From: an uncultured Dictyoglomota bacterium | Lineage (GTDB): Bacteria > Dictyoglomota > Dictyoglomia > Dictyoglomales > Dictyoglomaceae | DNA length: 64,000 nt | Assembly: GCA_964654465.1 (NCBI GenBank) | Contig: CAZZIO010000040.1 | Span: forward strand, 190,037-254,036 | Direction: 5' to 3' | In this document: piece after piece, positions 6,416-24,266 of the stretch | How the letters are laid out: each line of letters opens with the position of its first letter | How positions within the stretch are numbered: the stretch's first letter is position 1 | Position numbers and translations under genes: made by a program | Notes under the pieces: model-generated | Told to the model about the DNA's origin: nothing | Seen by the model: the letters and a program-made list of their open reading frames with translations, nothing else | The model's database searches: none

Positions 6416-6428
6416 CCAGAAGCCCCTC
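6386..6428 (-). terminator. Intrinsic terminator downstream of the SBP gene, between convergent genes
   Basis: Minus strand reads GGGGCTTCTGG-CTATACTC-CCAGGAGCCCC-CTGATTTTTTT. Confidence 0.7.
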
Positions 6429-7765: not shown

Positions 7766-7942
7766 TCTTTAACCTCCCCTTTAATAAATTTAAATTAAAA
7801 GATATTTAAGTTTAAAAAGTTTTAATTCTTTCCGTATACCCCCTTTCTTTTGTAAATAGTTTCCATCGTGTTTGTTTACATAGTACATCATTTGAAAATA
7901 ATAACTAACATTATATTGACCTGAAATTGCAAAAATTTGCTC

Positions 7943-9589
7943 TCATAATACTGGTACAGTAGTATCCAATATCACACCTTCTGGGAAAAATTCAAAAATT
8001 ATTTTTAGATTTGTTCCACTCTGAAGATTTTCAAAAACTTGCTTTCTTATAACCACTTGTGATTCAACAACATTAAAGTCATCCCAACCTCTAAGATAAG
8101 GAGTCCATGAATCTCTAATAGGTCTACCAGTTTTGGCATCAAAAATCTTTATCGCACATAATTTTGTACCATTAAAATTAATAAGAAATTTTGCATCCAT
8201 TGGCACTCCACTAATAATATTAAATGGTTTATCTAATAAAACTGGGTCTTTGTATTGAATAATCTCTAAAGGATAGTCTACTCCTTTTGTGAATTTAAAC
8301 ATGAGAATTCCATTTCTTCCATATACACCAGGTTTAATTATTGTTTTTATTAAACTGGATTTCAGTAAAACTTGATCATTCTTAAGCAAAATATAATCTT
8401 TATTTAAATCTAATTTCCTTTCCCCTAAATATATACCTTCCAATTTATTCTCATTCAATTCTAAAGAGATTACTATATCTTTAATCTCTTGTTTCTCTTT
8501 TAAATAAAGTATCCCAGGATTTAAAAAGGCATTAGGATTCCCCATTGAAGCATTAATAATGATTTTCACAAGTACTTCATCCCTCCACATCCTATTTCTC
8601 CTATCATAATTATCAAAACCATTATCCCAATAAAAGGTTGCCATCTTATATTTTTTAGCTGTTCTTATAAGGTTATCAATAAAATACCACTCTGCTGGTT
8701 TATTCCCATTAGATACTCCAAACTCACCAATTATAAAAGCATGATTTGGAAATTTTTCTCTAACAATACGAATATCATTATCCATCTGTGCTTTATCTTT
8801 ATTGCTTCCCCATGTTTTCCTTCCCCACCAATTAGCCACAAAATCCCATGGCGAATAATAATGGATACCAATGATTATATTTTCATCCTTTGGAGGTATT
8901 AGGTATTTCTCAGCCTTATATGTATCTGTCAAGAGTGGAGGTATTACTAATAATCTTTTATCATTAAATCCTCCTGAATTTCTTATAAGTTTTAGAATTC
9001 TTTCATTTACTTCATTTTGAATTTTTCCAGCCTCTTCTTCGGAGAACCCCTCATAAGTAGGTTCATTTATTATCTCAAAAATCAGTTTCTCTGAATAATC
9101 CTTAAATCTTTTAGCTATCTGCTCCCACAATTTCTCTAATTTTCTCATTGTTTCTTCCTTATCCTGCTTCATTTCCTTACTTAACCATCTCCAAGAATCA
9201 TGATGAACATTTATTATTACAAAAAGATCCCTTTCAAGAGCCATATTCACAACCTCTTCTACCCTGTTCATCCAAGCCTCATCCACATTATAATCAGGAG
9301 CAGGCCCCATATGATCAACCCATGTAACAGGAATTCTCACACTTTTAAATCCTGTTTTCTTAATATCATCAAAGATGTATCCTTCAGTTTTAGGATTTCC
9401 CCAAGAAGTTTCATCAGGTATGGCATCCAGAGAATTTCCAAGATTCCATCCAGGATCCATTTCTTCTACTGCTTTATGAGGATCAATATAACTAAAACTT
9501 CCCTTATATGAACTTGCATATCCTTGATTACAAAAGATTATTAAGAAGAATAGTAAATTTAGCAAAACTATTACCCCAGTGATTTTCAT
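7943..9589 (-). CDS. Secreted GH5 endoglucanase/xyloglucanase, likely GH5_4 plus Ig-like and CBM46-like modules
   Basis: PGWNLGNSLDA, RIPVTW, INVHHD, FEIINEP (acid/base), HYYSP, IGEFG (nucleophile) and WDNG. The last ~200 aa resemble the Ig+CBM46 tail of Bacillus halodurans Cel5B-type enzymes, judged from memory. Confidence 0.88.
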   Translation of the reverse strand: MKITGVIVLLNLLFFLIIFCNQGYASSYKGSFSYIDPHKAVEEMDPGWNLGNSLDAIPDETSWGNPKTEGYIFDDIKKTGFKSVRIPVTWVDHMGPAPDYNVDEAWMNRVEEVVNMALERDLFVIINVHHDSWRWLSKEMKQDKEETMRKLEKLWEQIAKRFKDYSEKLIFEIINEPTYEGFSEEEAGKIQNEVNERILKLIRNSGGFNDKRLLVIPPLLTDTYKAEKYLIPPKDENIIIGIHYYSPWDFVANWWGRKTWGSNKDKAQMDNDIRIVREKFPNHAFIIGEFGVSNGNKPAEWYFIDNLIRTAKKYKMATFYWDNGFDNYDRRNRMWRDEVLVKIIINASMGNPNAFLNPGILYLKEKQEIKDIVISLELNENKLEGIYLGERKLDLNKDYILLKNDQVLLKSSLIKTIIKPGVYGRNGILMFKFTKGVDYPLEIIQYKDPVLLDKPFNIISGVPMDAKFLINFNGTKLCAIKIFDAKTGRPIRDSWTPYLRGWDDFNVVESQVVIRKQVFENLQSGTNLKIIFEFFPEGVILDTTVPVL

Positions 9590-9600
9590 AATACATCACC

Positions 9601-10179
9601 TTATTTTACAAATTTGATGTCATCCACATACAAAATAGTCTTTCCAGACGGAACCCCAGAAACCTCTATGCTCATCCCCCATATTCTTTTTAGATCTACA
9701 GTAACGAAAGACTTTAAAGGAATTGAAATTTTTGTCCAAGAAGTAGGCACTCCACCTGAAATGGTATATTTTTCAGAATAAACCTCTTTTCCTCCTTTTT
9801 CACTTGGTGCTTCTGCAAGAGTTATTAAAAGATTGTAATTATCAGTTTTCTCAGATTTAATATAAAACTCTAAAGTTTTATATTGAGATAGATCAAATAT
9901 TTTATCTTTATTATCAAAATTCCACTTTGCAAAATTAATTCCCATCCCAGCCCACCAGCTTTCCCAAACAAAGCTGATTTTAAGACTTCTCTTACCAGAA
10001 TATGCAATACCCTCTAATTCTTCAGCCTTACAACCTTCAGGAGCAACCCAAAAACCCAACGAAGACAAATTAGAATTGTCACTCTCTCCATCGTAGATTA
10101 ATAATACATTACCTATTTGAGAAAAAATCAATGTTACGACCATTAAAAAAAGAATAGAAATCTTTAAGAATCTCTTCAT
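9601..10179 (-). CDS. Secreted carbohydrate-binding-module-like beta-sandwich protein
   Basis: Signal peptide; WWAGMGI, DLSQYKTLEFYIK, WTKISIPLKSF and YVDDIKF pattern typical of CBM11/CIA30-like galactose-binding folds. Confidence 0.65.
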   Translation of the reverse strand: MKRFLKISILFLMVVTLIFSQIGNVLLIYDGESDNSNLSSLGFWVAPEGCKAEELEGIAYSGKRSLKISFVWESWWAGMGINFAKWNFDNKDKIFDLSQYKTLEFYIKSEKTDNYNLLITLAEAPSEKGGKEVYSEKYTISGGVPTSWTKISIPLKSFVTVDLKRIWGMSIEVSGVPSGKTILYVDDIKFVK

Positions 10180-10203
10180 ATAAATACCCCCTTTTAATTT
10201 TTT

Positions 10204-11160
10204 TTAACCAATTATTCCTGTTCTTTCCACACTCTCAACAAAAAACCTTTGGGTAAATATATAGAATATTAGCATAGGTAACATAACTAATACAGCTCCA
10301 GCATACTGCGGTGGCAATATTAGTAAAGGATCAAATATTTGTGTACCACCAGTAATAATGGATCTTATATTTGCTAAGTTTAAAGAAAGAGTATACTTAT
10401 CAAAATCACCAATAAAAACAGATGGCTCAAAAACATCATTCCAATGCCAAACCACCGAAAATAAGAAAACAGTCACTATTGCTGGTATAGAATTAGGAAT
10501 AAAAATTCTAAGATAGGTTTGAAAAGGAGAAGCACCATCCACATAAGCTGCCTCTTCTAACTCCTTAGACATACCTCTGAAAAACTGTCTAAAAATATAT
10601 ATAAATAGACCACTTCTTAAACCACCACCTAAGATGGTAGGAAGAATAATAGGATAATAGGAATTTAATAGATTTAGAGGTTCACCCCTTATTAATCCGA
10701 TAATATTTAAGATGTCAAACCTTTGATAAAACACATATAAAGGAATAAGCAAAACCTGGGGTGGAACTATAAGGGTAAATATAATAAGTGCAAATATAAT
10801 TTCCCTTTCTTTAAATTTAAATCTGGCAAGTCCGTATCCTATCATGGAACAAGCAATAACGTTAAAAATAGCAGGAATAATAGAAATAATAAGACTATTT
10901 TTAAAAGCATTAAAATAATTTAAAGATTTAAATGCCAATATAAAATTTTCAAGAGTTGGATGCTTTGGAATCCATACTACAGTAGGATCAATAAGATCTT
11001 CTCTACTTTTAAGTGCTGTACTAAACATAAAAAGAACCGGTCTTAATAATACGTAAGAAAGACCTATAAAAAGTAAGATTTTTAAAATATTATATGTCCA
11101 GACACTTATTTTATGCTTCCATATAAGAATTAATTCTTCTTTTTTATATTGTTTAAACAT
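10204..11160 (-). CDS. Carbohydrate ABC permease (MalG-like)
   Basis: Multiple TM segments; EAA loop ELEEAAYVDGAS; WHWND. Confidence 0.92.
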   Translation of the reverse strand: MFKQYKKEELILIWKHKISVWTYNILKILLFIGLSYVLLRPVLFMFSTALKSREDLIDPTVVWIPKHPTLENFILAFKSLNYFNAFKNSLIISIIPAIFNVIACSMIGYGLARFKFKEREIIFALIIFTLIVPPQVLLIPLYVFYQRFDILNIIGLIRGEPLNLLNSYYPIILPTILGGGLRSGLFIYIFRQFFRGMSKELEEAAYVDGASPFQTYLRIFIPNSIPAIVTVFLFSVVWHWNDVFEPSVFIGDFDKYTLSLNLANIRSIITGGTQIFDPLLILPPQYAGAVLVMLPMLIFYIFTQRFFVESVERTGIIG

Positions 11161-11172
11161 ATATTTTCCTCC

Positions 11173-12090
11173 TTACTCATTCATGTAAAATACCCGTTTA
11201 GATATAATCCAAATTAAAATAAGTAAAATAGCACCTACAATCAAGAAATAGAGCCATGCAATAGCTGCACTATAACCGTGATTTAATTGTCTAAAGGCCA
11301 CTTCAAGAATATATCTAAGCACATCATTACTATAATCAGTGAAAGAATCTATAACCGTATATATGACATTCACAAGAATAATAGGAGAAATCATAGGTAA
11401 TGTAATCTTCCAAAATACTTCCCAAGAAGTTGCTCCTTCTACTTGGGCTACCTCATATAACGATGAAGGAATAGATTGTAATCCAGCTAAAAATATAAGT
11501 ATCTGCACACCTGATTTCCAAATAATTTCATATATCCTATCAATGGCATTAATAACGGGCATTAAAAATGGAATATTACCTGTTATCCTTACTAAAAACA
11601 TTCTAAAATCTATACCTCTCAAAAAGGGTGAGTTAGACATAGCCATTCCTGCTTGGGCACCAATATTAAATTGCTCCAAAGAATTAGATTCAAAAACATA
11701 AAGTAATGCTCCCGACATAACGACAACAGGTAAGAAAAAAATAGCTCTTACTATAGTTCTTCCTTTAAATCTTTGGTTCAAAAGTATAGCAATAAATAAA
11801 GAAAACATTATTATTAAAGGAATATTTACCACAATATTTCCAATTTCAGTGGTCAGATATCTTATAAAATTAGGATCTTCCCTTAAAGCCTTTATAAAAT
11901 TACTCAATCCCACAAAAGTCAATTTATATCCTTCTGGAGAAACATCTAATTGACTAAAGGCAAAAATTATAGATTGAATAAAAGGCCATGCAAAAAAGAT
12001 CACAAATCCAACAAGCCATGGGTAAACAAATAATCTACCTATTCTTGCTTGTCTTTGAGCCAAAGTTTTAAATCTTTTTTGTTTTTTCAT
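11173..12090 (-). CDS. Carbohydrate ABC permease (MalF-like)
   Basis: TM segments; FLAGLQSIPSSLYEVAQVEGATSWEVFWKITLP. Confidence 0.92.
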   Translation of the reverse strand: MKKQKRFKTLAQRQARIGRLFVYPWLVGFVIFFAWPFIQSIIFAFSQLDVSPEGYKLTFVGLSNFIKALREDPNFIRYLTTEIGNIVVNIPLIIMFSLFIAILLNQRFKGRTIVRAIFFLPVVVMSGALLYVFESNSLEQFNIGAQAGMAMSNSPFLRGIDFRMFLVRITGNIPFLMPVINAIDRIYEIIWKSGVQILIFLAGLQSIPSSLYEVAQVEGATSWEVFWKITLPMISPIILVNVIYTVIDSFTDYSNDVLRYILEVAFRQLNHGYSAAIAWLYFLIVGAILLILIWIISKRVFYMNE

Positions 12091-12104
12091 AGATTATTTC
12101 CCCC

Positions 12105-14315
12105 TTATTTCTTTCCTAAGGAGAATAAAAAGTCTTCTCCTCTAACCATTTTACCTTTATATAGATAAGATGCTTTATTATAATTAACTACTATTTCAGC
12201 CCCATTCTCATACTCAACTCGATAAACCCCATCTGTAAGCTTATTATGGGACTTTATAGGAACATCATATATATTCAGATACAAATTCTTAACTTTATTG
12301 TATTCTTCTACTGCCTGTTCAATCCAATCCTTATAATTGGAACTTAACATTTCGTTATAAAAACTCTTTTTAAAATATGATGAATCTTTATAAATGAACA
12401 TATAATATGGTATAGCACCATACTCTACCATTCTTAAAAATTCTTTCTTTTGACTCTCTCTTAAATTTCCTGGTCTTCCACTAAAAGGAATATATCCATG
12501 AATAATCATTGGATAAAAAGGAATAGCTTCTGATTCTATTGAAAAATTACTACAATCAAGAGAAACATCAAGGAGCATAGAAGTATAAGGAAGAATATAA
12601 AGATTACCAGAGGTAAATATAAAGTTATATTTATCTATATTACTAGATAAAGCCTCTCTCCACAATGAAATTACCTCTTCTCTGGAGAGCAATCTTGGAA
12701 ATTTATTTTGAGAATAGACATACTCTCCCATCTTCTCGATTAAAGCATTATTTATTCCATATTTAGATATACCCTTCAAGAAATTATTTAGATAACTTGG
12801 AACCTTACTTGGAAGCACAATAAACCATGGATCATAATCTCTATTCTTCTTCTTAATAACAGGATCCCATTTATATAGAAAAGCAAGACCATTATTTAAA
12901 TATCTATTTCCATCTCTTGAAGGTGAAAAACCATTACCAGATTCGTGTATTTCTATAATTTCTGCAGTTAAATATAAAGGTATATTGTTCTTCTTACAAT
13001 AATCTAAAAGCCTTCTTAATCCATTGTCTCCTCCAATTCTTGCTTCTACTTTTACTCCATTTGTGATTTTACTCATATATCCCCCTGATTGATACCCTTT
13101 CAAAATAAGGTTTATATTATCAATACCTTTAGATTTTAATTCCTGTAATATCTTAATAGTCTCATCAAAAGTGGTAAGTGGAAAAAGATCAACAACAGGA
13201 ATTCCAGCCTTAGTAGTTTTTATTTTTATGCTATTAATAATTGTCAAATTAAAAGGTACTTTATCTACTTTTACAGATTTTTTATAAAGATATCCATTAT
13301 TGAGAAGATAATTCCTATATGTTCTTGCCATTAAAGAATAATCAACATCTTTACCGGTAAAAAGATAATAATTTATAACAATATCACTCTTAAGAGTATA
13401 AGGAGAAAACTTACTTACCAATACATCTACCACTTCTCCTGGCTGTCCTGTTGATGCCTCCCTTTCATAAAGTAAGAACTTATGAATCCTACGATAATTA
13501 AAGATTGGATAAACCCTATAATATGAAGTAGCATTACCCGCCATATAACAAGCCAAACTTGCATCAGCATCCCCACTCTCAATAATTCCCAAGATTCCTA
13601 AATCGTTTCTTTTCACTCCATATATAGGTAAATTTATATTCTCTGTTTTTGGAGGCATATTATATAAAGGGAGTCCATAATCTAAACCATATATTGGAAT
13701 TTCAAATCCTCTCTCATTTCCAGCCTTATGATCAAATCTTACTAAAGCTCCAGAACCATCAGGCAAAACAAGATAACCATTATCTCTTTTTTCACCATAT
13801 ATAAAATAAGGTAAAACCCAAATTCTATTTAACTTTAAATCTCCTTCTTCCTTTACAGAATCCATAGGTACTCTAACTTTTAATCCATACGAGGTCAAAT
13901 AAAACTCTATAGAAATAGATAAGCCCTGAGTAGAAAATTCATAATCAAATCTTATTCCATCCTTAATATTCTTCACTTTATAGTTTCCTCTCATAACTCC
14001 TAAAGCATAGGTATTATAAACAGTAATTTTCCCTTCTTGATCTGCCATCTCTACCACTAAATGAGACGGAATACTAAACTTAGTAACCCCCATAGAAGGA
14101 TCGTTTTCCCAATTTTCTGGAAATTGTCTAAAAATTTTTCCTGTTTTATTCTCCTTAATCATAACTTCAGCTGTTTGTCTATTAAGCAACATAGAGAATT
14201 TCTCATTTTGAGCTACAACTTTTAAACCATTATCTTGGCTATATAGAGGGATAATTAATAAAAGGATTATTATAACTACAAAAAAATTACTGTATTTCAA
14301 GAAGTATCTTTTCAT
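12105..14315 (-). CDS. Secreted DUF5696-like protein (possible glycoside-hydrolase-like fold)
   Basis: Signal peptide; GYLVLPDGSGAL, LPIYG, DYSLMARTYRNYL, LTTFDE, IPFYPMIIHGYIPFSG and LRMVEYGAIP motifs that I recognise from this family; 736 aa. Confidence 0.7.
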   Translation of the reverse strand: MKRYFLKYSNFFVVIIILLLIIPLYSQDNGLKVVAQNEKFSMLLNRQTAEVMIKENKTGKIFRQFPENWENDPSMGVTKFSIPSHLVVEMADQEGKITVYNTYALGVMRGNYKVKNIKDGIRFDYEFSTQGLSISIEFYLTSYGLKVRVPMDSVKEEGDLKLNRIWVLPYFIYGEKRDNGYLVLPDGSGALVRFDHKAGNERGFEIPIYGLDYGLPLYNMPPKTENINLPIYGVKRNDLGILGIIESGDADASLACYMAGNATSYYRVYPIFNYRRIHKFLLYEREASTGQPGEVVDVLVSKFSPYTLKSDIVINYYLFTGKDVDYSLMARTYRNYLLNNGYLYKKSVKVDKVPFNLTIINSIKIKTTKAGIPVVDLFPLTTFDETIKILQELKSKGIDNINLILKGYQSGGYMSKITNGVKVEARIGGDNGLRRLLDYCKKNNIPLYLTAEIIEIHESGNGFSPSRDGNRYLNNGLAFLYKWDPVIKKKNRDYDPWFIVLPSKVPSYLNNFLKGISKYGINNALIEKMGEYVYSQNKFPRLLSREEVISLWREALSSNIDKYNFIFTSGNLYILPYTSMLLDVSLDCSNFSIESEAIPFYPMIIHGYIPFSGRPGNLRESQKKEFLRMVEYGAIPYYMFIYKDSSYFKKSFYNEMLSSNYKDWIEQAVEEYNKVKNLYLNIYDVPIKSHNKLTDGVYRVEYENGAEIVVNYNKASYLYKGKMVRGEDFLFSLGKK

Positions 14316-14326
14316 CTTTTCACCTC

Positions 14327-16405
14327 TTAACCAATCATATATTTAATTTCTAAATAAACTGTATAGACAAATCTAATAAATTGTTGAAAAGTAGCAAAGA
14401 AAACCATACCTATAAACATAGCAAATATTATTCCACCTAAGGTTACTAAAGACGTTCCTATAGCTTTACTTAGGGTATATTCTTGGAGTTCCATCATGCC
14501 AGAAAGAATGATCCATATTGACCAAAGAGTTCCTATAGTACCTATGAAATAGTAAAATGCTGCCTCATCTAAGGTAAAAACATGACTCAATAAAGTTTGA
14601 GGCAAAATCAAAAGAGCCAGTGGGAAAATACCATATACTGTCATAATAAAAATCTCTCTCATTTTTGCCTTTCCTTCCATTATGGTGGTAACCGCCCAAT
14701 TTATAATCACCCATACTAAAATAGGAATTAACACTCTGCCTATCTCCCAGAGAATATTCAATTCTTCAGGTCGATATGGATTAAAATGAAAAGCAGTCAT
14801 TAACCTTTGTATTATAAAAGAGAGAATTATAAAAATTAATAAGATAAGAGCTCCTCTAAAAGCTTTAGGTTTCCTTCTTAACTCGTAGAATCCATCAAAA
14901 GGATGCCTAATCACATAAAAAACATACATTACAGTATAAAAAAGTTCATGATTTCTGAGAAAATTATGATAATGACTTCTAATAGTATTTCCCAAAAATC
15001 TGTTTATCAAATATAAAGCTAAGATCAACAAAAGTATAGTGTTCATTATTAATGTAAAATTCCTTCTCATATACTCTATTCTGTATCCTCTTAAGGCTTT
15101 TGAATATCCTGTAGGATAAAAACCAAGTCTAAAACTTTCCATTGCTTCTTTATATTTTTCTTCATGGAGATAGTTTTTGCCTATACCAATATAAGCAAGA
15201 TCATAATTGGCATCCATCTTAACAACTTTGTCCCATATATTAGCAGCTTTTCCATAATAACCTTGAACATAATAAGAATTCGCTTTTAATACTAAATCTC
15301 CAAAAGTGGTAGGTTTAAAAGTAGTTATTGTACCCTTATTCTCATCTAAAACAAAAACTTTTCCTTTATCTATATCTATAGCGGTTGGATATTGGAAGGT
15401 CCCCTTTTGATTTCCAATATCACCAAAAACAAAAAGATAATCACCAAGATTGTTATAAACAAAAACCCTACCTACTCTACCATCCAAAACATAAAGATTC
15501 TCAGAATCATCTACAGCAATATCCACAATTTCTCCTCTAACAGTAAAACCAAAATATAGATCACCATACATACCGCCCGTGCGACCTTCCTGTTTAATAA
15601 TATTGTCTCCTAAGGCATTTAATCTTTTAATTTGGTCATACCAAGCCCTTACACATCCATATATAAATCCATCTTTATCAGCTGTTACATTTCTATACTC
15701 AATCGGAATAAAAAGTACAAGTTGAGATCTTTGTTCTCTTGTAAGTACTCTTCTCCAGAAAAGTTCTACTGGATTTACCTCAACCCTATTACTTCCAAAA
15801 AATCTTTCAAAATTTCCATTTGGACTAAACTGTATTAAACCTTCAACCACATTCTCTGCTACCACATATATTCTTCCCAATTTATCCACAGCCACTTTTT
15901 TAGGAATATATACAAAATCCTTATGTATAACCTCTCCCACAGGTTTGCCTACAATTTTAAAAAGAGAACCATCTGGATTTAAAATCACAATTCTCGCATT
16001 CTGAGAGTCTGCTATATATAGTTTGCCCTCATCGGTTAAAAATAAACCTGTCGGTGCTTTAAATCCTTCTCTTTTACCATTATTGATAAAACCATCAATA
16101 ATTTTCTTAAGTTTAAAATCTTTATCTATAACAACAATTCTATTATTTCCTGTATCTGCCACATATACATCTCCATTCCTTTTATCTACGAAAAGATCTT
16201 CTGGTGAAGAAAAATCTTTGTCTAATCCTATAGTTTCACCCGTATAGATCTTTTCCGGCTCATAAGCAGGTAAAGAAGGAACTGGCCTACGTCGCTCATT
16301 ATAAATATAAGTGTGATAAGGTATACCTGCGTAAGTTACACAAATAATCAGAAAAAGAAAAACTATTAATCTAATGAAAAATCTTCTTTCTTTTCTCATA
16401 AACAA
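14327..16405 (-). CDS. NHL-repeat beta-propeller / TPR / Yip1-domain membrane protein
   Basis: NHL repeats (PEDLFVD..VYVADTGNNRIVV; PTGLFL..LYIADSQNARIV; PKKVAVD), a TPR-like stretch (AYIGIGKNYL..YKEAMESF), a TM helix, then HPFDGFYEL followed by ~5 TM segments (Yip1-like). Confidence 0.8.
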   Translation of the reverse strand: MFMRKERRFFIRLIVFLFLIICVTYAGIPYHTYIYNERRRPVPSLPAYEPEKIYTGETIGLDKDFSSPEDLFVDKRNGDVYVADTGNNRIVVIDKDFKLKKIIDGFINNGKREGFKAPTGLFLTDEGKLYIADSQNARIVILNPDGSLFKIVGKPVGEVIHKDFVYIPKKVAVDKLGRIYVVAENVVEGLIQFSPNGNFERFFGSNRVEVNPVELFWRRVLTREQRSQLVLFIPIEYRNVTADKDGFIYGCVRAWYDQIKRLNALGDNIIKQEGRTGGMYGDLYFGFTVRGEIVDIAVDDSENLYVLDGRVGRVFVYNNLGDYLFVFGDIGNQKGTFQYPTAIDIDKGKVFVLDENKGTITTFKPTTFGDLVLKANSYYVQGYYGKAANIWDKVVKMDANYDLAYIGIGKNYLHEEKYKEAMESFRLGFYPTGYSKALRGYRIEYMRRNFTLIMNTILLLILALYLINRFLGNTIRSHYHNFLRNHELFYTVMYVFYVIRHPFDGFYELRRKPKAFRGALILLIFIILSFIIQRLMTAFHFNPYRPEELNILWEIGRVLIPILVWVIINWAVTTIMEGKAKMREIFIMTVYGIFPLALLILPQTLLSHVFTLDEAAFYYFIGTIGTLWSIWIILSGMMELQEYTLSKAIGTSLVTLGGIIFAMFIGMVFFATFQQFIRFVYTVYLEIKYMIG

Positions 16406-17257
16406 TTACTCCTTAATACCTGCAGATTTCATAGTTTCTACTACATTGCTTTGGGTCACTATAAAAATAATTAAAGAAGGTAACATCATAAGAATAGCAG
16501 CAGCTGCTGCCGCTCCGGCTCTTACAAAGCCTCCTTGTTGAATATAGGTAAGTGCTAAGGAAAAAGGCTTCATAGCCTCATTATGTATATATAATGAAGG
16601 AGTGTATGTATCATTCCATGTATCTCTAAAAGCAAATAATATAAGAGTAAGCCATGCAGGCTTCACATTAGGCATAACCACATACCACCATATCTTAAAC
16701 TCATTTGCCCCATCAATCCTAGCAGATTCAATATAGGAATCTGGAATCTGTTCCATAAACTGTTTCATCAAGAACAAACCTAAGGTAGCCCCTATATAGG
16801 GGAGAATAAGAGAAAAATATGTATCTAAAAGTCGCAATTTAGCCATTATAATAAACCTTGGAATATTGGTAACATAACCTGAAAACATTAAAGAAAATAT
16901 CACAAGATTGAACAAAAACTTACTTCCTGGAAATTTATGTTTAGCCAAAGGGTAGGCAGCCATAGAAGCAATAAGCACATGTCCTAATGTGCTCATAAAA
17001 CTGATAAAAATACTATTAAAAAGATATCTTGAAAAAGGCACAAAAGAATTACTCATGAGATAAAAGAGATCAGAAAAATTCTTTAAGGTTGGTCTTCTAA
17101 CAAATAATCTGGGTGGAAAAAGAAATAATTCATCCAATGGTTTAAAAGCATTCATTATAGAATACACAAGGGGTAGAGCCATAAATACTGCTACAATTCC
17201 AAGTACAATTATTAGTATCAAATTTCCCCACCAAGATCTATTAATTCTTGATTTCAT
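16406..17257 (-). CDS. Carbohydrate ABC permease (MalG-like)
   Basis: TM segments; IPDSYIESARIDGANEFKIWW. Confidence 0.92.
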   Translation of the reverse strand: MKSRINRSWWGNLILIIVLGIVAVFMALPLVYSIMNAFKPLDELFLFPPRLFVRRPTLKNFSDLFYLMSNSFVPFSRYLFNSIFISFMSTLGHVLIASMAAYPLAKHKFPGSKFLFNLVIFSLMFSGYVTNIPRFIIMAKLRLLDTYFSLILPYIGATLGLFLMKQFMEQIPDSYIESARIDGANEFKIWWYVVMPNVKPAWLTLILFAFRDTWNDTYTPSLYIHNEAMKPFSLALTYIQQGGFVRAGAAAAAAILMMLPSLIIFIVTQSNVVETMKSAGIKE

Positions 17258-17284
17258 TTTAAAAGTAAAACCTCCTTATGAATA

Positions 17285-18184
17285 TTAATCAGGCCTAATT
17301 AATTTTCTAACTCCTTGGTTAATACTCACTGTTATTAAGAATAAAATTACTGCTATTGCTGATGCATATCCCATTTCATATCTAATACTTCCATAATCCC
17401 ACATATGAAGAACTATAGTATGAGCCGAATATAAAGGACTTGGAAAGCCAATCAATTGAGCAGATATGTCAGCCACAGCAAAGGACGCAGTAACTTGCAT
17501 TATAGCCCCGAAAATAAGTTGAGGTTTCATAGAAGGTAAAGTTATATACCACAATTCTTGCCATCTATTTCTGATCCCATCTACTGCTCCTGCCTCATAC
17601 AGACTTCTGTCTATAGTTTGAAATCCTGCAATAAAGGCTAAAAAGCTTGTCCCCAAACTCATCCAAAGTTGAATCACCATAAGCACGTATAGATTAATAC
17701 GAGAATCCTGTAACCAATATATTGGTTCCTTTATTATGCCTAAATTCATTAGAATACCATTTAGCAATCCATATACATCACCAGAAAAGATGTAAGTCCA
17801 TATGAAGAAAATTGCAGAAGATAGAGCAGGAGCATAAAAAAGTAAAGTTAAAAAAGCTCTAATTTTTGGGGGTAGTTCATTTATAAGCCAAGCAAAAAAT
17901 AAGCAAGCAAGATAACTCAATGGTCCAGTAATTAAAGCAAACTTAAAGGTATTTTGTAAAGCAATTAGAAAAACGTCATCCTCTAAAAAGAGTCTTTTGT
18001 AGTTATTCCATCCAACGAATCTAGGCATCTGTATTACATTATAATTGGTAAAACTAAGGATAGCTCCTACAATAACAGGAATTACAGTGAAAGTAAAAAA
18101 TAATATAAAATAAGGAAGAACTAAATAATAAGATTCTTTATTCTTTTTAATTTCCTTCCATAAATCTTTAAATTTTCCTCTCAT
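17285..18184 (-). CDS. Carbohydrate ABC permease (MalF-like)
   Basis: TM segments; IDRSLYEAGAVDGIRNRWQELWYITLP; YEMGYASAIA. Confidence 0.92.
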   Translation of the reverse strand: MRGKFKDLWKEIKKNKESYYLVLPYFILFFTFTVIPVIVGAILSFTNYNVIQMPRFVGWNNYKRLFLEDDVFLIALQNTFKFALITGPLSYLACLFFAWLINELPPKIRAFLTLLFYAPALSSAIFFIWTYIFSGDVYGLLNGILMNLGIIKEPIYWLQDSRINLYVLMVIQLWMSLGTSFLAFIAGFQTIDRSLYEAGAVDGIRNRWQELWYITLPSMKPQLIFGAIMQVTASFAVADISAQLIGFPSPLYSAHTIVLHMWDYGSIRYEMGYASAIAVILFLITVSINQGVRKLIRPD

Positions 18185-18202
18185 TTTAAATTCTCCCTCT
18201 AA

Positions 18203-21070
18203 TTATTCTTTTGCTAATTCAAGTCCAAACTCTTCTCGTTTTCTATCAATTTCCTTATTAATCTCTTTAGTATATTTCTCTATGGCTTCTCTTGGTATCT
18301 CTCCAAGCATAACTACTTCCCTAAAAGCATTATCTAAATGTCTATATGTATAGTAGCTACCAGGAACATTAGGAATCTCCTTAAGATATTTCCATTGCTC
18401 AGAAAGGACCTTATAGTCTGAAGAAGGCCATGGTAAATAACTCATAGCTTCTACATTAGCAGTGTTATATCTTGCACCTGCCCCTAAAACAGCTTCTAAT
18501 TCCCTACCAAACCTTGCTTGTACATCAGATGATAACCACCACTTAACAAATTCCCATGCCTCAAGGATTTTTTTGGATTGAGCAAATATTAATACTGCGT
18601 TACCACCACCAGCAACACTTCTATCTATACTACCATCTGATTTTCTTCTTCCTGGAACAGGTGCTATTCCCCATAATCCACTTATTTCCGGAGCTGCTAC
18701 TTTAAATTGATTATACATAGTATAAGGACCAATACCTAAGGGCATCTCTCCTGTTCTAAATCTGTTAAAGAAATCATAATAAAGCGGTATTCCATAGAGA
18801 ACATATAAATTTGTCCACTCTCTAAATGCATCTACACCTTCCTCATTATTTAGTACACACCTTTTACCATCTTCTGTATAATATTTTCCTCCCCTTTGTA
18901 GAAGCAACATGTTGAAAATATCAAAACTTGTACCACCTGTTCCTGCAGCAAATTGTAAATTATAACTCTGAAGCTTTGCGATAGTTTTGTAAAGCTCATC
19001 CCATGTATCTGGAATCTCAATGTTTAGACGACCAAGGATATCTGCCCTATAAAACATTATTGGAAAATCTTGAGTCATTGGCAAACCGTATACTTTTCCT
19101 CCGAAACCATATGGAACAAGAGCATACTTAGCAAATCTACTTTTTACTTCTTCAAAACCGGGTAATTTTGAAACATCTACCAATGCCCCACGTATTCCAT
19201 AATCTACAGCAAGACCTCGAGATACATTAAGAGCCACATCTGGAGGATTCTCTTTTGATGCAACCGAGAAAAGTAGTGCAGCCTCAGTAGTTATAATATT
19301 AATGTTTACACCTATTCCTGTTTTTGGAGTAAACTCAGTATCTATTAACATCTTCAAGGTTTCAGCTTGATCTCTACCCATTTGTACCCACACATTAATA
19401 GCCTTATCCTTTTCATATACAGTACCAATTAAGTTATAATCTTCAATAAAAGATATGAAAAACTTTTTAGTTGCATCAATAACCCTTTCAAATATATTGG
19501 GATTTATCCTTGGTACTTGTGCATCTTGTGAGGCTATTACAATATAATCAATATCTAATGGCTGTTCTCTAATTGTAAGAACCCACGCAGATAATGAAGA
19601 TAAGTTATCTCTATATCTTTGCAATCTTTGAGCAATTGTTTCTGGCTCTCTTGCCATTCCTTCCAATTGAATTGCCACAGTTTCCAAGGTAGCTGCTTCA
19701 CTTGCCTTTTCACCACCAATTTTCCTTATCTTTTCTGCATTTTCTCTCAATAATTTTGCATTTTTAAGGAGAGTATCTATAAGATCAGGAATATTTTGCT
19801 CTAACAGATAATCCCTGTAAGGGTCTGGATTAGGAGAAGTAATCATAACAATTTTTGTATATAATTGAGATAAATCAATAGAACATTGAAGTACATTTCT
19901 TATTATATCTGCAATGCTTTCATAAGTAACTTTAAGACGCAGGGTATGTTCACCCTTTTTTAAATAAAATAAATACGGATCTTTATCATTTCCCAAATAT
20001 GAAAATTGCCAGTGAGTATTATATTTAAACTTAATATTTTTAACCTCTTCAAAAGGAATTTTTCCATCTATATAAAGAGTTCTTTCTGATGGTATTCCTG
20101 GATTAGCATTCTGTCTATATTTAATTCCTATTTTATATAAACCATCTTCAGGTACATTAAACTTCCACTCAATCCACTGACCTGCAGATCTCCAATTATA
20201 TCCCCCTATGATATTTAATACTTTTCTTCTAGAATCATAAGGTTCGTTAAGGGGATTAGACCTATCAGAGATTGGATAAAGAGTAGGCTCCGATTTTAAG
20301 GTAGCATTTTCACCTTGTACCTTTATAAAAATACCGCTTAGTTTCTTATCTTCCCTATTTTTTTGTGAAACTTCTTCATATTTTAGTTTTTTTTCTTCGT
20401 TAAAAATCTTTATATAATCAATAACCATAGGTTCTTTCACTGATACAAATCTTATAGTATGTTTTCCTGGTGAAAAATAAAAAAGGAAAGGATCAGCATA
20501 TAAACCATCAGGATCCTCTAAAATCTTTTCTACCCAAATAGGATTTTCCACCTGTATAGGTCTAAGTTCATTACCCCTGTTGTCTTTTAAAGCAGGTCCT
20601 CCATCTTTCCATATTCTTTCAAATCTCAAAATCCTGGCTTCATTAAAAGGTCTTTTTCCATCAATAAGAAGTTCTCTTTCAATACTTGAATTTTTACCTT
20701 TTATAGGGAAATATTTAACTGCTATGTTATATAAACCTTCCTCTTTTATATTAAAAGTCCACTCTATATATCCATTCTCTCCAGTAAGTATAACTGGATG
20801 TTTGTCAGAGGTTAGATCAGTTAAGACTTTTAAATTTAAATCTTTAGAAAAACTAGAATATTTCACACCAGGAATAATAATAACTGATTTAGGTCTTGGT
20901 TTATCTACATATTTCGATATGTAAGTTTCATAAGAATTTTCTCTACTTATAAGTTCAAAAATAACATTTAATTTATAATTCTGATTTTGAGCAAAAGAAA
21001 ATGAAAGCAAGAAATTAACAATAAATATGAAGGTAACCACTTTCAGAAAAGTTTTCATCACCTTTTCCAA
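18203..21070 (-). CDS. Large multidomain solute-binding protein (N-terminal CBM-like domains, C-terminal sugar SBP)
   Basis: The ORF-track start (21127) falls inside a hairpin; the TTG at 21070 follows GGAGG (alternative ATG at 21058). Signal peptide, two repeats of IEWxFxxxExGLYxIxxKY...GxHTxR, a helical linker, and a C-terminal SBP (MFYRADIL, PDTWDEL, FRTGEMP, AWEFVKWW). Confidence 0.85.
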   Translation of the reverse strand: MEKVMKTFLKVVTFIFIVNFLLSFSFAQNQNYKLNVIFELISRENSYETYISKYVDKPRPKSVIIIPGVKYSSFSKDLNLKVLTDLTSDKHPVILTGENGYIEWTFNIKEEGLYNIAVKYFPIKGKNSSIERELLIDGKRPFNEARILRFERIWKDGGPALKDNRGNELRPIQVENPIWVEKILEDPDGLYADPFLFYFSPGKHTIRFVSVKEPMVIDYIKIFNEEKKLKYEEVSQKNREDKKLSGIFIKVQGENATLKSEPTLYPISDRSNPLNEPYDSRRKVLNIIGGYNWRSAGQWIEWKFNVPEDGLYKIGIKYRQNANPGIPSERTLYIDGKIPFEEVKNIKFKYNTHWQFSYLGNDKDPYLFYLKKGEHTLRLKVTYESIADIIRNVLQCSIDLSQLYTKIVMITSPNPDPYRDYLLEQNIPDLIDTLLKNAKLLRENAEKIRKIGGEKASEAATLETVAIQLEGMAREPETIAQRLQRYRDNLSSLSAWVLTIREQPLDIDYIVIASQDAQVPRINPNIFERVIDATKKFFISFIEDYNLIGTVYEKDKAINVWVQMGRDQAETLKMLIDTEFTPKTGIGVNINIITTEAALLFSVASKENPPDVALNVSRGLAVDYGIRGALVDVSKLPGFEEVKSRFAKYALVPYGFGGKVYGLPMTQDFPIMFYRADILGRLNIEIPDTWDELYKTIAKLQSYNLQFAAGTGGTSFDIFNMLLLQRGGKYYTEDGKRCVLNNEEGVDAFREWTNLYVLYGIPLYYDFFNRFRTGEMPLGIGPYTMYNQFKVAAPEISGLWGIAPVPGRRKSDGSIDRSVAGGGNAVLIFAQSKKILEAWEFVKWWLSSDVQARFGRELEAVLGAGARYNTANVEAMSYLPWPSSDYKVLSEQWKYLKEIPNVPGSYYTYRHLDNAFREVVMLGEIPREAIEKYTKEINKEIDRKREEFGLELAKE

Positions 21071-21113
21071 TTTACATTCCTCCACTTTTTTGTAAACAAT
21101 TTTATATCTTTTT

Positions 21114-21149
21114 GGGAGAGAAGACAAGTATTTTATTGTCTTCTCTCCC
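21114..21149. repeat. Perfect 14-bp inverted repeat (stem-loop without U-tract) between SBP B and the large SBP
   Basis: GGGAGAGAAGACAA-GTATTTTA-TTGTCTTCTCTCCC. Confidence 0.85.
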
Positions 21150-21159
21150 TAAGACTAAA

Positions 21160-22485
21160 CTACTTCAACCCTTCTAAAATAGCATCAATAGCAGCTTGGA
21201 ATTTAGGTTTCAAGGCCTTTATAGATTTAGCAGGATTAGCCACATCAATTTGATTAATTAGATCCCAAAAACCAGGAATTCCAGATATAGGATCAATAAC
21301 TGCTCTCGTAGAAGCATCTAAAAGCAAATCATAAATCTCCTTTCCGCCAACCCTTTCTATCTGATCTTTCACTATTAATTCCTTCTCTCTGTCTGTTGGC
21401 ATTAGCATCCATATTAAGTATAGGGCTGCAAGCTCTGGATATTTAGAAGAAGAAGCAATAGCCCATGCGCCACCATCTGCCATATCTGCACTCTTTTTCT
21501 TACTATTAGGTCCCTTTGGGAATGGAACTATTCCAAGCTTTTTACCAAGAGCATTTCTCATTCCACTAAGTTCCCATGGACCCCAATAATCCATACAAGT
21601 TATCCCCTTTTGAAATCTTCCCTGTGGATCTGTCCACCAGTCAGCAGGTCTCATCTTATATTTTGCATCCATTTCATATATAGCTTGAAATGCCCTATAT
21701 GCCTTTTGATCATCCATTGCAAAAACAGGCCTTCCTCCAATATATTTCACAACTTCCACATCATTAGTAAAAAGGAATGGTTGTATAACTGCCCATGTAG
21801 CATAAGCATACTGATCTATTTTTCCATCACCATTGGTGTCTTGTGTAAGTTGCTTCCCTGCATTAAAAAAAGCCTCCCATGTCCATTTACCCTGCTTATA
21901 TAACTCTAATGGATCTGGTAACCCTGCCATCTCAAATTTCTCTTTGTTATAATAAAGAATAAAAGGGAATACGTTGTCACTATATATATTTGCTACTGCA
22001 TAAACTTGCCCTCTCCATGTGAAGAAGTCTACAGTACTTTTCCTAAAACCTACAGCATTCCAAAGATTTTTGTCTTTAAAGTCAATATATCTATTAAGAG
22101 GAAGGAGCATCTTCTTCATCATCCAAGTAGGTTTTTCACCTGCACCAATATACACTACATCTGCTCCTGCTCCCGACAATATGGCTGCACTTAATTTAGG
22201 TGTGTAGTTTTCCCATGTCGTATATACGATCTGTACTTTAGCACCAGTTATTTTTTCAAATTCTTCTCTTACTTGCTTTGCTGATCGAATACCTGGAATA
22301 CTACTTTTTTCTTCTTCTGGCCAAAATTGCCAGACATAAATAGTCTTACCCCTGTACTTTTGCGTATCAATATTTAATGTATAATTCCCAACCTTTACTG
22401 TATATACCTTTTGACCAAAAGACGGAACTATAGCAGTTACAGATAAAAACATAAAAATTAAACAAAAGAGAAAAAATTTTTTCAT
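21160..22485 (-). CDS. Sugar ABC transporter solute-binding protein (paralog B)
   Basis: Same motifs as 6437-7765, with long identical blocks; signal peptide without a lipobox. Confidence 0.9.
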   Translation of the reverse strand: MKKFFLFCLIFMFLSVTAIVPSFGQKVYTVKVGNYTLNIDTQKYRGKTIYVWQFWPEEEKSSIPGIRSAKQVREEFEKITGAKVQIVYTTWENYTPKLSAAILSGAGADVVYIGAGEKPTWMMKKMLLPLNRYIDFKDKNLWNAVGFRKSTVDFFTWRGQVYAVANIYSDNVFPFILYYNKEKFEMAGLPDPLELYKQGKWTWEAFFNAGKQLTQDTNGDGKIDQYAYATWAVIQPFLFTNDVEVVKYIGGRPVFAMDDQKAYRAFQAIYEMDAKYKMRPADWWTDPQGRFQKGITCMDYWGPWELSGMRNALGKKLGIVPFPKGPNSKKKSADMADGGAWAIASSSKYPELAALYLIWMLMPTDREKELIVKDQIERVGGKEIYDLLLDASTRAVIDPISGIPGFWDLINQIDVANPAKSIKALKPKFQAAIDAILEGLK

Positions 22486-22689
22486 GGCTTAAACCTCCCA
22501 CCTAAAAAAATCATACCTTTCAAGTTAATTTTATCTTTAATAAAATTTTACCTTCTACTACAATTTTGGTAAAAAATAAAAATATTTTGCTTTATATTAA
22601 AATTCCATTAAAAACATGAATGGATTAATTATAGATTGAAAATTAAATGTTTATAATGATTTTGAGTATTTATAAATACCTTTATAAAT

Positions 22690-23550: not shown

Positions 23551-23632
23551 ATCTACCTCATTACATTTAATTAAAATTCTTATTATTTATTATAGACTAT
23601 AAGCACAAATTCGGTTAAAATTTCATTTTAGT

Positions 23633-24250: not shown

Positions 24251-24266
24251 GTTCTAAAGATTTTTA

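Follow-up and report, generated by a model that had tools for sequence, protein, structure and literature searches.

Gene content and layout of the operon

The minus strand of the window, by which we mean the whole stretch of 64,000 nucleotides that was analysed, carries twelve co-directional genes which run from an AraC-family regulator to a terminator-like hairpin (ORF calls and Pfam); all features described below lie on that strand. The host is a hot-spring bacterium, and its copy of the cassette is intact. A preliminary description had reported a co-directional run from a solute-binding protein (SBP) gene to a GH5 gene, with gaps of 0-27 bp from a giant SBP onward. ORF calls and Pfam bear out this run and its gene content, the gaps being 18, 27, 0, 11, 14, 12, 24 and 11 bp, but the regulator, a second small SBP and the hairpin had been left out.

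The regulator (22690..23550; cupin sensor and HTH_18 by Pfam) is encoded directly upstream of the operon on the same strand and likely controls it. A fragment of such a regulator is found at the equivalent place in six of seven Dictyoglomaceae loci; the remaining locus, L017, ends too early. At the other end, the hairpin (6397..6426; 11 pairs, 8 of them G-C, and a T-run) starts 10 bp past the stop codon of the second small SBP and is the sole strong minus-strand terminator-like site within 6000-24500. It is the probable end of the operon, though a pattern match only, as terminator-like sites are in total not more numerous than in shuffled sequence. Contigs of 90-95% similarity from an RNA-labelled metatranscriptome extend over each of the 30 bins and run across four gene junctions, which hints at expression of the operon, with DNA carry-over in the RNA library being possible.

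The first small SBP, SBP_a (21160..22485; 441 aa; SBP_bac_1 and SBP_bac_8 by Pfam), has a signal peptide with an N-terminal hydrophobic helix at residues 5-23, and its closest solved relative is the arabino-oligosaccharide SBP 6rjy (E 1.1e-30). Its paralogue SBP_b (6437..7765) is 82% identical to it over 421 residues, and is present in three of the six Dictyoglomaceae loci reaching that far and missing from the other three.

The giant SBP (18203..21127; SBP_bac_1 at residues 587-871 by Pfam) comprises 974 aa with a TTG start and 951 aa with an ATG start at 21058, the latter being more likely because a signal-like helix comes after that ATG. In its AlphaFold2 model (pLDDT 87.2, pTM 0.77) an N-terminal helix is followed by two beta-sandwich domains, a four-helix bundle and, last, an SBP domain of MalE type. 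Structure comparison covered the SBP part, which resembles 3uor (Z 39.1) and the beta-1,2-glucooligosaccharide SBP 5ysb (Z 37.6, 26% identity), while the beta-sandwich and helical parts are known from the model. The earlier label of this protein as CBM-CBM-SBP holds as far as two beta-sandwich domains are present; every CBM family in Pfam stays below threshold, Golvesin_C scores 25.4 bits (cut-off 31.6), and all Atlas leads are <0.8.

All four permeases, F1 (17285..18184; MalF/UgpA-like), G1 (16406..17257; MalG/UgpE-like), F2 (11173..12090) and G2 (10204..11160), match BPD_transp_1 in Pfam, and each carries a loop which we take to be the EAA coupling motif (read from the sequence as EAGAVDG, ESARIDGA, EVAQVEGA and EAAYVDGA, respectively). 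F1/G1 are assigned to module A and F2/G2, previously termed F' and G', to module B. As had been stated before, there is no ATPase gene locally: no ABC ATPase domain was detected among the 56 ORFs scanned over the whole window. The genome, which contains 53 BPD_transp_1 matches, encodes a single OB_MalK-type ATPase on another contig than the operon (C18), and this protein belongs to the UgpC/MalK subfamily (497 bits, cut-off 432).

Downstream of G2 lie genes for a secreted CBM-like protein of 192 aa (9601..10179; signal-like N-terminus) and for a secreted GH5 endoglucanase with CBM_X2 and a C-terminal domain (7943..9589; Cellulase and CBM_X2 by Pfam). The CBM-like protein matches CBM30 and CBM11 under the cut-offs (25.3 bits vs 27). 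It is found in seven of seven Dictyoglomaceae loci and its profile matched none of the loci of two other phyla, so that it appears to be a Dictyoglomaceae-specific add-on. Residues 32-540 of the GH5 protein match 4yzp, a "cellulose hydrolase", with an E-value of 1.1e-133; this enzyme is a substrate-specific add-on of the present cassette copy.

The two proteins encoded between the permease pairs

The NHL-TPR-Yip1 protein (14327..16405; NHL, TPR_2 and Yip1 by Pfam) is the product of the sole Yip1 gene in the genome, with scores of 72.8 bits for NHL and 48 bits for Yip1 (cut-off 28.6). According to hydropathy, transmembrane segments at residues 10-28 and 450-468 enclose an ectodomain (29-449), formed by an NHL beta-propeller and TPR, and the helices of the C-terminal five-helix Yip1 domain follow at 518-671. 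Complex prediction, which covered the F2/G2 pair, gave an ipSAE of 0.54 for residues 440-692 together with F2/G2 (scores 0.54, 0.55 and 0.50), in a band where the predictions of this tool mostly fail unless the proposed contact was likely beforehand. When G2 was swapped for an unrelated protein the value dropped from 0.54 to 0.01 (best control 0.01). Of the one physical complex envisaged in the preliminary description, this weakly suggests one part, a docking of the Yip1 domain on F2/G2, and we propose the protein as the membrane scaffold of module B.

The neighbouring protein of 736 aa (12105..14315), described before as DUF5696-like, is a true member of PF18952 (E 1.6e-179). Its model (pLDDT 91.0, pTM 0.90) shows an N-terminal hydrophobic helix, a beta-sandwich, a TIM barrel and a C-terminal beta domain. 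It shares this three-domain architecture and profile-level homology with GH129 and GH129-like enzymes, namely NagBb (5wzn; Z 29.6, 566 aligned residues) and DagB (5opq, 8rzk; Z 28.1, 582 aligned residues), and matches a GH129-type PDB profile with E 1.7e-8. In contrast to these enzymes it is anchored by its N-terminal helix and always encoded beside ABC permeases. The Pfam scan gave no match to PF11308, whereas hhalign related the two families with a probability of 98.6%. The catalytic residues were mapped by profile-profile alignment and sequence anchors, not by superposed coordinates; in this mapping the invariant D410 and E454 of PF11308 correspond to E527 in the nucleophile column and T568 in the acid/base column. 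Acids at both columns occur in only 4 of 149 DUF5696 relatives (26 of 149 with one column of slack). The protein thus seems to keep a GH129-like fold but to have lost the catalytic pair of nucleophile and acid/base residue conserved in that family, and because the GH129 catalytic columns are not conserved the trimming of glycans ascribed to it earlier is doubtful.

Nevertheless, it may be an active enzyme that represents a new glycoside hydrolase family and trims oligosaccharides to the size taken up by F2/G2. Besides the complete GH129 fold, such a reading can draw on D186 (97% conserved in the family) and D212 (88%), both in loops of the N-terminal domain, and perhaps E631 (92% D/E), which could form a different, non-canonical active site, on cleft columns that are invariant among Dictyoglomaceae, and on a P-D-G-S-G-A loop whose counterpart in the PF11308 alignment is the conserved P-x-G-E-G loop. 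DagB offers a precedent: it is active although one of the two NagBb catalytic residues is not conserved in it, and Asp202 of its N-terminal domain is required for activity (PMC5698469). However, not only the lost catalytic columns argue against an enzyme. All close structural relatives cleave alpha-linkages while the cassette contexts mostly concern beta-linked glycans, and chemically unrelated substrates are served by one cassette design. On balance we regard an active enzyme as rather unlikely, yet as the most probable of the rival readings.

Distribution and modularity of the cassette

The core gene order is identical in seven of seven other Dictyoglomaceae loci. In a broad sample of 401 genomes PF18952 was found in 17; a distant small-genome phylum has it in 70 of 399 genomes and a second phylum in 21 of 301. 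From the small-genome phylum 40 loci were fetched, and all 38 with at least 8.9 kb on either side (fully flanked) start with the giant SBP, continue with two permeases, NHL/TPR, Yip1 and DUF5696 in this order, and end with two or more further permeases. Since the gene order repeats in distant genomes, the cassette is not a chance arrangement. The neighbourhood survey thereby confirms a strong co-occurrence of Yip1, DUF5696, both permease pairs and the large SBP, and the statement in the preliminary description that other biomass degraders have similar gene orders proved correct.

The second phylum is different. There, ten of 20 loci keep the full order, six hold module B only and four have B before A; among 19 informative further giant-SBP loci, 14 are full cassettes and four consist of the giant SBP, F and G alone. 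F1 accompanies the giant SBP in the swapped-order and stand-alone loci, and small SBPs border module B where it occurs without A. The loci with a single module stem from two or three related families with many cassette copies per genome and therefore represent few independent events. In two variant loci (L023, L024) the NHL-TPR-Yip1 and DUF5696 genes are combined with a second Yip1, HlyD, MacB_PCD and one permease pair.

The preliminary description had pictured four permeases wrapped around a single supramolecular complex, that is one obligate machine in which the giant SBP, NHL-TPR-Yip1, DUF5696 and the two permease pairs jointly take polymer or long oligomers from capture through trimming to import. 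The fixed order in the 38 flanked and seven Dictyoglomaceae loci, the short gaps and the weak in-silico docking of Yip1 on F2/G2 speak for it, as does the finding that all 21 DUF5696 genomes of the second phylum also strongly match the N-terminal part of the giant SBP. But the second phylum splits the cassette into two mobile units, and as the modules occur alone or swapped such a machine is improbable. The single permease pair of the L023/L024 variant and the equal number of SBP kinds and permease pairs also count against it, and type I ABC importers function with two membrane subunits. The B-only, swapped and A-alone loci are most simply read as a pair of importers that have an SBP each and usually occur together; a tighter coupling than that could lie behind the strict A-B order of the 38 loci in one phylum.

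It is highly improbable that the two accessory proteins are unconnected with transport and, though encoded in the same operon, have a different role in the envelope, for example in sensing or surface maintenance. The indication of contact is a weak prediction, and an AraC regulator, not a membrane sensor, probably controls the present copy. But in every fully flanked cassette locus of three phyla, Dictyoglomaceae included, a permease pair directly follows DUF5696 and Yip1/NHL-TPR directly precedes it (except in L097, where no Yip1 ORF was called). The DUF5696 proteins outside the cassette (L018, L025, L026, L027) are divergent outliers.

The flanking catabolic genes vary among loci and include GH16, a GH144-like protein with GH94 phosphorylase and GH3, NAGPA, alpha-amylase, NamZ with GH3, a kinase, a MurQ-like protein and NagB, and here GH5. 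Depending on the locus they point to beta-1,2-, beta-1,3- or beta-1,4-glucan or to MurNAc salvage.

Two proposed importer modules in the light of known systems

In the best explanation of the whole, which we hold with slightly better than even confidence, the cassette combines two separable CUT1-type ABC importer modules with a common ATPase encoded elsewhere. Module A would comprise F1/G1 and the giant, N-terminally tethered SBP with its beta-sandwich domains, helical stalk and MalE-like oligosaccharide-binding domain; module B would consist of F2/G2, a small SBP, NHL-TPR-Yip1 and the membrane-anchored DUF5696 protein. Gene content, folds, conservation, module separability and the lack of an ATPase gene nearby are observed, while we infer the substrates, the pairing of SBPs with permeases (SBP_a with F2/G2), the contacts between the proteins and what DUF5696 does. 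The secreted GH5 would cut the polymer, and long fragments would be held at the membrane by the giant SBP and loaded onto F1/G1. The Yip1 domain would contact F2/G2 much as YknW associates with the YknXYZ ABC pump, placing the propeller/TPR ectodomain and DUF5696 above this pair. DUF5696 would mainly offer a cleft that binds glycans, or else be a non-canonical enzyme, with the products passing to the small SBP and F2/G2. The single MalK/UgpC-type ATPase would drive both pairs.

Gram-positive CUT1 importers (TC 3.A.1.1; MalEFGK2 type) share an orphan MsmX/MsmK/MalK-type ATPase. The cassette resembles them in its two BPD_transp_1 permeases with EAA loops per module, its MalE-like SBPs and an operon that lacks an ATPase gene, the genome's one ATPase of MalK/UgpC type being encoded on another contig. 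Unlike the described CUT1 systems it has two permease pairs in fixed order, an SBP with about 500 extra N-terminal residues, and one pair with two constant companions, a membrane protein of the Yip1 family and a GH129-like protein.

The original work on YknWXYZ is reportedly that of Yamada et al. 2012. YknWXYZ of Bacillus is a four-component ABC pump whose assembly is modulated by the Yip1-family protein YknW (PMC4887032). YknYZ is an exporter of MacB type that has an ATPase of its own and a membrane-fusion protein. Common to both systems is a Yip1-family membrane protein encoded beside an ABC transporter and proposed to act on it, and the L023/L024 variant even has Yip1-HlyD-MacB_PCD adjoining DUF5696. 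In the cassette, by contrast, Yip1 is fused to an NHL/TPR ectodomain and would act on a permease pair of a type I importer; the Pfam scan found no HlyD or MacB part in the window.

As in Gram-positive polysaccharide utilisation loci and the SusCD systems of Bacteroidota, a regulator, a secreted endo-enzyme, binding proteins and a transporter are encoded together and the platform is re-used with different enzymes. Unlike in SusCD, capture would be due to SBP-borne beta-sandwich domains and the DUF5696 cleft. The proposed SusCD analogue built on ABC parts remains functional speculation, and the domain scan of ORFs found no homologues of SusC/TonB-dependent transporters or SusD in the window.

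Literature searches found no paper on the cassette, which is widespread yet unstudied and whose accessory proteins have workings that we infer. Judged from its varying neighbourhoods it appears to be a generic uptake platform, re-used with different enzymes, whose job in the present bacterium is likely the uptake of beta-glucan or xyloglucan-type oligosaccharides, the presumed substrates.

Gene content and transporter class

Both the gene content that the preliminary description had listed and the intergenic gaps of 0–27 bp from the giant SBP onward were confirmed by ORF calling and Pfam. The operon is real and intact, and comprises twelve co-directional ORFs on the minus strand from 23550 to 6397. 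According to Pfam, an AraC regulator is encoded first, followed by a small SBP of 441 aa (21160–22485) and by the giant SBP of 974 aa, for which a length of 951 aa from an ATG at 21058 is likelier and which carries SBP_bac_1 within its final 400 residues. Next are two BPD_transp_1 permeases (F1 and G1), an NHL/TPR/Yip1 protein of 692 aa, a DUF5696 protein of 736 aa (E 1.6e-179), two further permeases (F2 and G2), a 192-aa protein with sub-threshold matches to CBM30 and CBM11, and a GH5 protein with CBM_X2. The last gene (6437–7765) encodes a second small SBP, which is 82% identical to the first. The two small SBPs bracket the operon; the downstream copy is absent in one Dictyoglomaceae genus (loci L014–L016). 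Every secreted protein of the cassette starts with a hydrophobic helix, and none of the cassette proteins is named by NCBIfam above cut-off. The sole strong terminator-like hairpin of the minus strand is located at 6397–6426, 3' of the last SBP. It is the only site that stands out. Promoter-like and terminator-like sites overall are not more frequent than in shuffled sequence.

The GH5 protein (Pfam Cellulase 178 bits, CBM_X2 52.8 bits) has 4yzp as its best solved relative (E 1.1e-133, residues 32–540). Due to its catalytic domain, CBM_X2, C-terminal domain and full-length similarity it is predicted to be a 4yzp-type endoglucanase.

The window DNA is present in hot-spring metagenomes. In the RNA-labelled metatranscriptome X19, contigs which are 90–95% alike cover 30 of 30 bins of 6300–22700 and bridge the GH5/CBM-like/G2, DUF5696/NHL, NHL/G1 and F1/giant-SBP junctions, with depth highest over the two small SBPs; since genes cannot be ranked by the depth of contigs and DNA may have been carried over, expression levels were not drawn from these data.

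An EAA-type coupling loop is readable in all four BPD_transp_1 proteins, and three cassette proteins match SBP_bac_1 and SBP_bac_8 in Pfam. Pfam detected no ABC ATPase domain in the 56 ORFs of the window that were scanned, in agreement with the earlier claim that an ATPase gene is missing. The genome encodes a single OB_MalK-type ATPase, on a contig other than that of the window (C18), which reaches 497 bits against the UgpC/MalK subfamily (cut-off 432). As 53 permease-domain matches are found genome-wide, ATPase sharing is the rule in this genome, and the ATPase on C18 presumably serves the cassette permeases. The MalF/MalG-type subunits, the MalE-like cluster-B SBP and the MalK/MsmX-type ATPase elsewhere in the genome are features of the CUT1 type (TC 3.A.1.1). 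By its sequences the cassette is a variant of the CUT1 uptake systems, with predicted sugar uptake and with accessory proteins that are undescribed. A role as exporter or in exopolysaccharide production was rejected on the grounds that each of the four membrane subunits belongs to the type I importers and has an SBP encoded nearby. In contrast to SusCD-type PULs the cassette is devoid of a SusC/SusD lipoprotein pair; Pfam detected neither the SusC (TonB-dependent) nor the SusD families among the 56 scanned window ORFs.

Several other gene groups of the window deserve mention. On the plus strand, genes for NurA, HerA (DUF87), an Mre11-like metallophosphoesterase and a Rad50/SMC-like ATPase are arranged in tandem (46274–53156), an end-resection operon of archaeal style in a bacterial genome, and a family X DNA polymerase with pol beta-like thumb and palm and a PHP domain is followed by a TrmI/GCD14-type tRNA methyltransferase (25008–26750). 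The minus strand contains one run of formate-tetrahydrofolate ligase, FolD and MTHFR with its DUF5981 partner (58644–63283), which represents the methyl branch of one-carbon metabolism. A SpoIID-domain protein (34574–35662, minus strand) adjoins queuosine genes (TGT, QueA, QueH) and RuvABC; to our knowledge sporulation is not known in this phylum.

Structure of the giant SBP and the accessory proteins

The model of the giant SBP (pLDDT 87.2, pTM 0.77) consists of a helix (residues 2–35), two beta-sandwiches (60–219 and 244–377), a four-helix bundle (380–497) and the SBP domain (501–943). The C-terminal part aligns to MalE 3uor with Z 39.1, and the SBP domain to the beta-1,2-glucooligosaccharide SBP 5ysb with Z 37.6 at 26% identity and to CbpB with Z 35.7; as modelled, the SBP part resembles oligosaccharide SBPs. 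A fold search with the whole model yielded SBP matches only, which cover model residues 549–947. In an Atlas look-up the beta-sandwich and helical part matched fragments from its own family, together with GH115_C and CBM_35 leads, all of the leads below 0.8. Lipoboxes are rare in both large secreted proteins (10 of 74 giant SBPs and 9 of 87 DUF5696 proteins), so that the N-terminal helix is the likely tether of both, as far as the sequences indicate.

The DUF5696 protein matches PF18952 over profile positions 2–612 of 612 with 598.8 bits (cut-off 25.6). Its AlphaFold2 model, based on a 30-sequence alignment (pLDDT 91.0, pTM 0.90), comprises an N-terminal helix, a beta-sandwich, a TIM barrel and a C-terminal beta domain. 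Foldseek placed DagB (5opq, E 9.8e-37) and NagBb on top, followed by GH101, GH31 and GH36. In VIA-align, NagBb (5wzq) scored Z 29.6 with an rmsd of 3.5 over 566 residues and DagB (5opq) Z 28.1, and the next matches were barrel-only alpha-amylases with Z of 19.5 or less. The sequence profile also reaches NagBb (E 1.7e-8), and the three-domain fold of GH129 (NagBb type) is present in the model. PF18952 is the only Pfam match of the protein, which is not assigned to PF11308, and the genome contains no PF11308 match at E <= 1e-20.

According to the passages available from PMC5698469, the activity of DagB requires D202, D486, E517 and E531, and D435 and E478 are the catalytic residues of NagBb. In an alignment of 20 PF11308 sequences the acids D332, D410 and E454 are invariant. 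The hhalign comparison of this alignment with the DUF5696 profile (probability 98.6%, 472 columns) maps D410 onto E527, E454 onto T568 and D420 onto Q536 of the window protein; the mapping relies on this profile alignment and two sequence anchors rather than on superposed coordinates. For the NagBb numbering, the PF11308 homologue L072 was queried against the PDB and gave no match, and the homologue L070 matched short DagB segments only. Among 149 DUF5696 sequences, D or E occupies the nucleophile column in 45 (D in 15) and the acid/base column in 57. Four of the 149 have acids at both columns, and a tolerance of one column raises this number to 26. On this profile-alignment mapping, the GH129 pair of Asp nucleophile and Glu acid/base is not conserved in DUF5696. 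The sole acids conserved throughout the family are D186 (97%), D212 (88%) and E631 (92% D/E), of which D186 is part of a P-D-G-S-G-A loop aligned by hhalign to the conserved PF11308 loop P-x-G-E-G. Because acids are rarely found at the mapped catalytic columns, we read DUF5696 as a GH129-fold protein that probably lacks the canonical catalytic pair. Alternatively, the protein may possess an active site of a non-canonical kind.

In the third of these proteins, the NHL/TPR ectodomain (residues 29–449) is flanked by two membrane helices according to hydropathy, with the Yip1 helices behind. The Yip1 match (PF04893, 48 bits, cut-off 28.6) extends over residues 497–663, and the hydropathy peaks within 518–671 agree with a five-helix domain. 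The one described bacterial precedent for Yip1 that was found is YknW, which modulates the assembly of the YknXYZ ABC pump (PMC4887032, passages available). In contrast to YknWXYZ, no HlyD-type membrane-fusion protein, MacB-type permease or dedicated ATPase was detected beside Yip1 among the 56 window ORFs; the variant loci L023 and L024 are the only ones with HlyD and MacB_PCD.

A multimer prediction of Yip1 with the permeases had been proposed, and was made for the pair F2/G2 as three chains together with Yip1 residues 440–692. The ipSAE values were 0.54, 0.55 and 0.50, the best control reaching 0.01; the runs had at least 91% of their contacts in common, the pLDDT of the partner was at least 71, and replacement of G2 abolished the score. 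Of 80 solved complexes 58 attain the mark for this score, as do 2 of 110 mismatched pairs, and values up to 0.60, such as those obtained here, are found for only seven of the 80 solved complexes and for both of the passing mismatches. By the grading of the method, the prediction lends weak support to docking of the Yip1 domain on F2/G2.

Conservation and modular composition

A survey of DUF5696 neighbourhoods had likewise been suggested, and co-occurrence with Yip1, four permeases and the giant SBP was indeed seen. All seven other Dictyoglomaceae loci share the identical cassette order; six of them reach as far as the second small SBP, which three possess and three lack. In a broad sample PF18952 was found in 17 of 401 genomes, eight of them Dictyoglomaceae, and 63 of 109 predicted neighbour proteins were analysed with Pfam. 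The full cassette order is found in two unrelated genomes, at locus L020, with NHL/TPR and Yip1 as separate genes, and at locus L021, with a GH16 at the end. L022 is a truncated locus consistent with that order, and at two loci a divergent DUF5696 adjoins an SBP only.

The small-genome phylum to which L021 belongs has PF18952 in 70 of 399 scored genomes. From these, 40 genomes of eleven families were picked non-randomly with one locus each. In 38 of the 38 loci with at least 8.9 kb on both sides, the giant SBP is followed by two permeases and then, in turn, by NHL/TPR, Yip1, DUF5696 and a minimum of two more permeases; one Yip1 was missed by a distance filter but is visible in the other scan of the loci. 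The two truncated loci fit the order as far as their sequence extends.

Some loci show unusual gene structures. In L023 (6061–12953) and L024 (7030–13964), from genomes G063 and G229, a propeller-TPR-Yip1 protein, DUF5696, a stand-alone Yip1, HlyD, MacB_PCD and one CUT1 permease pair are encoded, so that YknW/X/Z-like parts are joined to an importer pair, and the giant SBP and the ATPase are absent nearby. The N-terminus of some F' permeases is extended by about 600 residues without a Pfam match (L061, 6217–8964; L062, 11044–13818), and in L064 (10724–12574) F' and G' are fused to one protein of 617 aa.

In the second phylum, that of L020, PF18952 was found in 21 of 301 genomes, and one locus was taken from each of the 20 genomes other than that of L020. 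The full order is present at 10 of the 20 loci, at one of which permease G is interrupted by an opposite-strand ORF. At this locus (L084, genome G921) it is permease G of module A that is split by an ORF of 442 aa, which may be an insertion element, and the rest of the cassette is complete. Six of the 20 loci contain NHL-TPR-Yip1, DUF5696, F'G' and small SBPs without the giant SBP-F-G, and at the other four the giant SBP-F-G lies downstream of F'G'. The N-terminal profile of the giant SBP matched strongly in 23 of 301 genomes of this phylum, which are all 21 genomes with DUF5696 plus two fragmented ones. Twenty further giant-SBP loci comprise 14 full cassettes, one of them without a called Yip1 ORF, four loci with giant SBP-F-G alone, one odd and one truncated locus.

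These loci bear on the initial reading of the cassette as one supramolecular machine of four permeases, Yip1, DUF5696 and giant SBP. The gene content and the conserved order agree with it, and the separability of the two halves (6/20 without giant SBP-F-G, 4/20 rearranged, four giant SBP-F-G alone) speaks against a single machine. Across the loci the giant SBP travels with F and G as module A, and a second unit, module B, unites Yip1, DUF5696, F'G' and a small SBP. Since the exceptions stem from a small number of related families rich in cassette copies, the number of independent events behind them is low. The single four-permease machine is accordingly weakened in favour of two cooperating modules; the way in which the accessory proteins work is something we infer.

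The named relatives of the DUF5696 protein are 60–94% identical in Dictyoglomus and Dictyoglomaceae, 46% in a Caldicellulosiruptoraceae bacterium, and 20–37% in Paenibacillus, Amphibacillus, Clostridia, Lachnospiraceae and Oscillospiraceae. In a midpoint-rooted FastTree of 149 DUF5696 proteins, from which three divergent rows had been removed before building, the 23 Dictyoglomaceae-type sequences form one clade (support 1.0), sister to the Caldicellulosiruptoraceae sequence. As this clade is nested among Clostridia-type sequences, the tree suggests a transfer between thermophilic Clostridia and the ancestor of Dictyoglomaceae, in a direction that is unproven.

Gene surroundings and biological meaning

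Pfam analysis of 48 flank proteins from 15 loci and of the broad-sample neighbours revealed different enzyme sets beside the cassette. The partner enzyme in the window is GH5. Elsewhere GH16, NAGPA, GHL10 with DUF4127, or an alpha-amylase are each found at some loci, and another set consists of GH144-like 'Glycoamylase' proteins, a GH94-type phosphorylase and GH3. The cassette is a generic uptake platform which is re-used next to different enzyme sets. A further set with NamZ, GH3, a BadF-type kinase, a MurQ-like SIS protein and NagB is, judged from its families, one for MurNAc/peptidoglycan salvage, and by gene-size pattern it is the commonest in the small-genome phylum. In L039 (1121–7015) genes for DUF624, NamZ exo-muramidase, GH3, BadF-type kinase, MurQ-like SIS protein and NagB come after the cassette, and this gene-size pattern is repeated in about 14 loci (e.g. 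L033, L038, L042–L048, L052) of small-genome, apparently wall-less bacteria. The position of the salvage set beside the cassette suggests that these bacteria import wall fragments of other bacteria.

No paper was found on 'DUF5696', and the search for Yip1 with ABC transporters led to the YknW work only. For Yip1 or NHL repeats with sugar ABC transporters or polysaccharide utilisation nothing relevant was found, and the main-text passages available of the D. turgidum genome paper (PMC5167688) do not discuss the cassette. Three cassette proteins are without a described function in the literature found.

The cassette is common, DUF5696 being present in 70/399 and 21/301 genomes of the two phyla, and its loci concern wall glycans of plants, fungi and bacteria. 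Should the accessory proteins prove to be subunits of the transporter, the textbook CUT1 picture of an SBP, two permeases and an ATPase would lack components in a large proportion of the Firmicutes that degrade glycans, of wall-less gut bacteria and of Dictyoglomota. All the proteins are available in thermostable form from the Dictyoglomaceae copy, and Dictyoglomus strains exist in culture, which is convenient for biochemistry and cryo-EM.

A bolder reading, which we consider rather unlikely, would make module B an ABC importer of a new class. Yip1 as a scaffold and a clamp with GH129 fold but no catalytic activity would sit on the permease pair and feed it long glycan chains, and the polymer would be reeled in by module A through its giant SBP, which would bear CBMs. 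If true, this ABC-based counterpart of SusCD would allow single-membrane, wall-less and Dictyoglomus-type cells to import chains instead of small oligomers, and the same device would serve in turn for beta-glucans, for xylan and for fragments of peptidoglycan.
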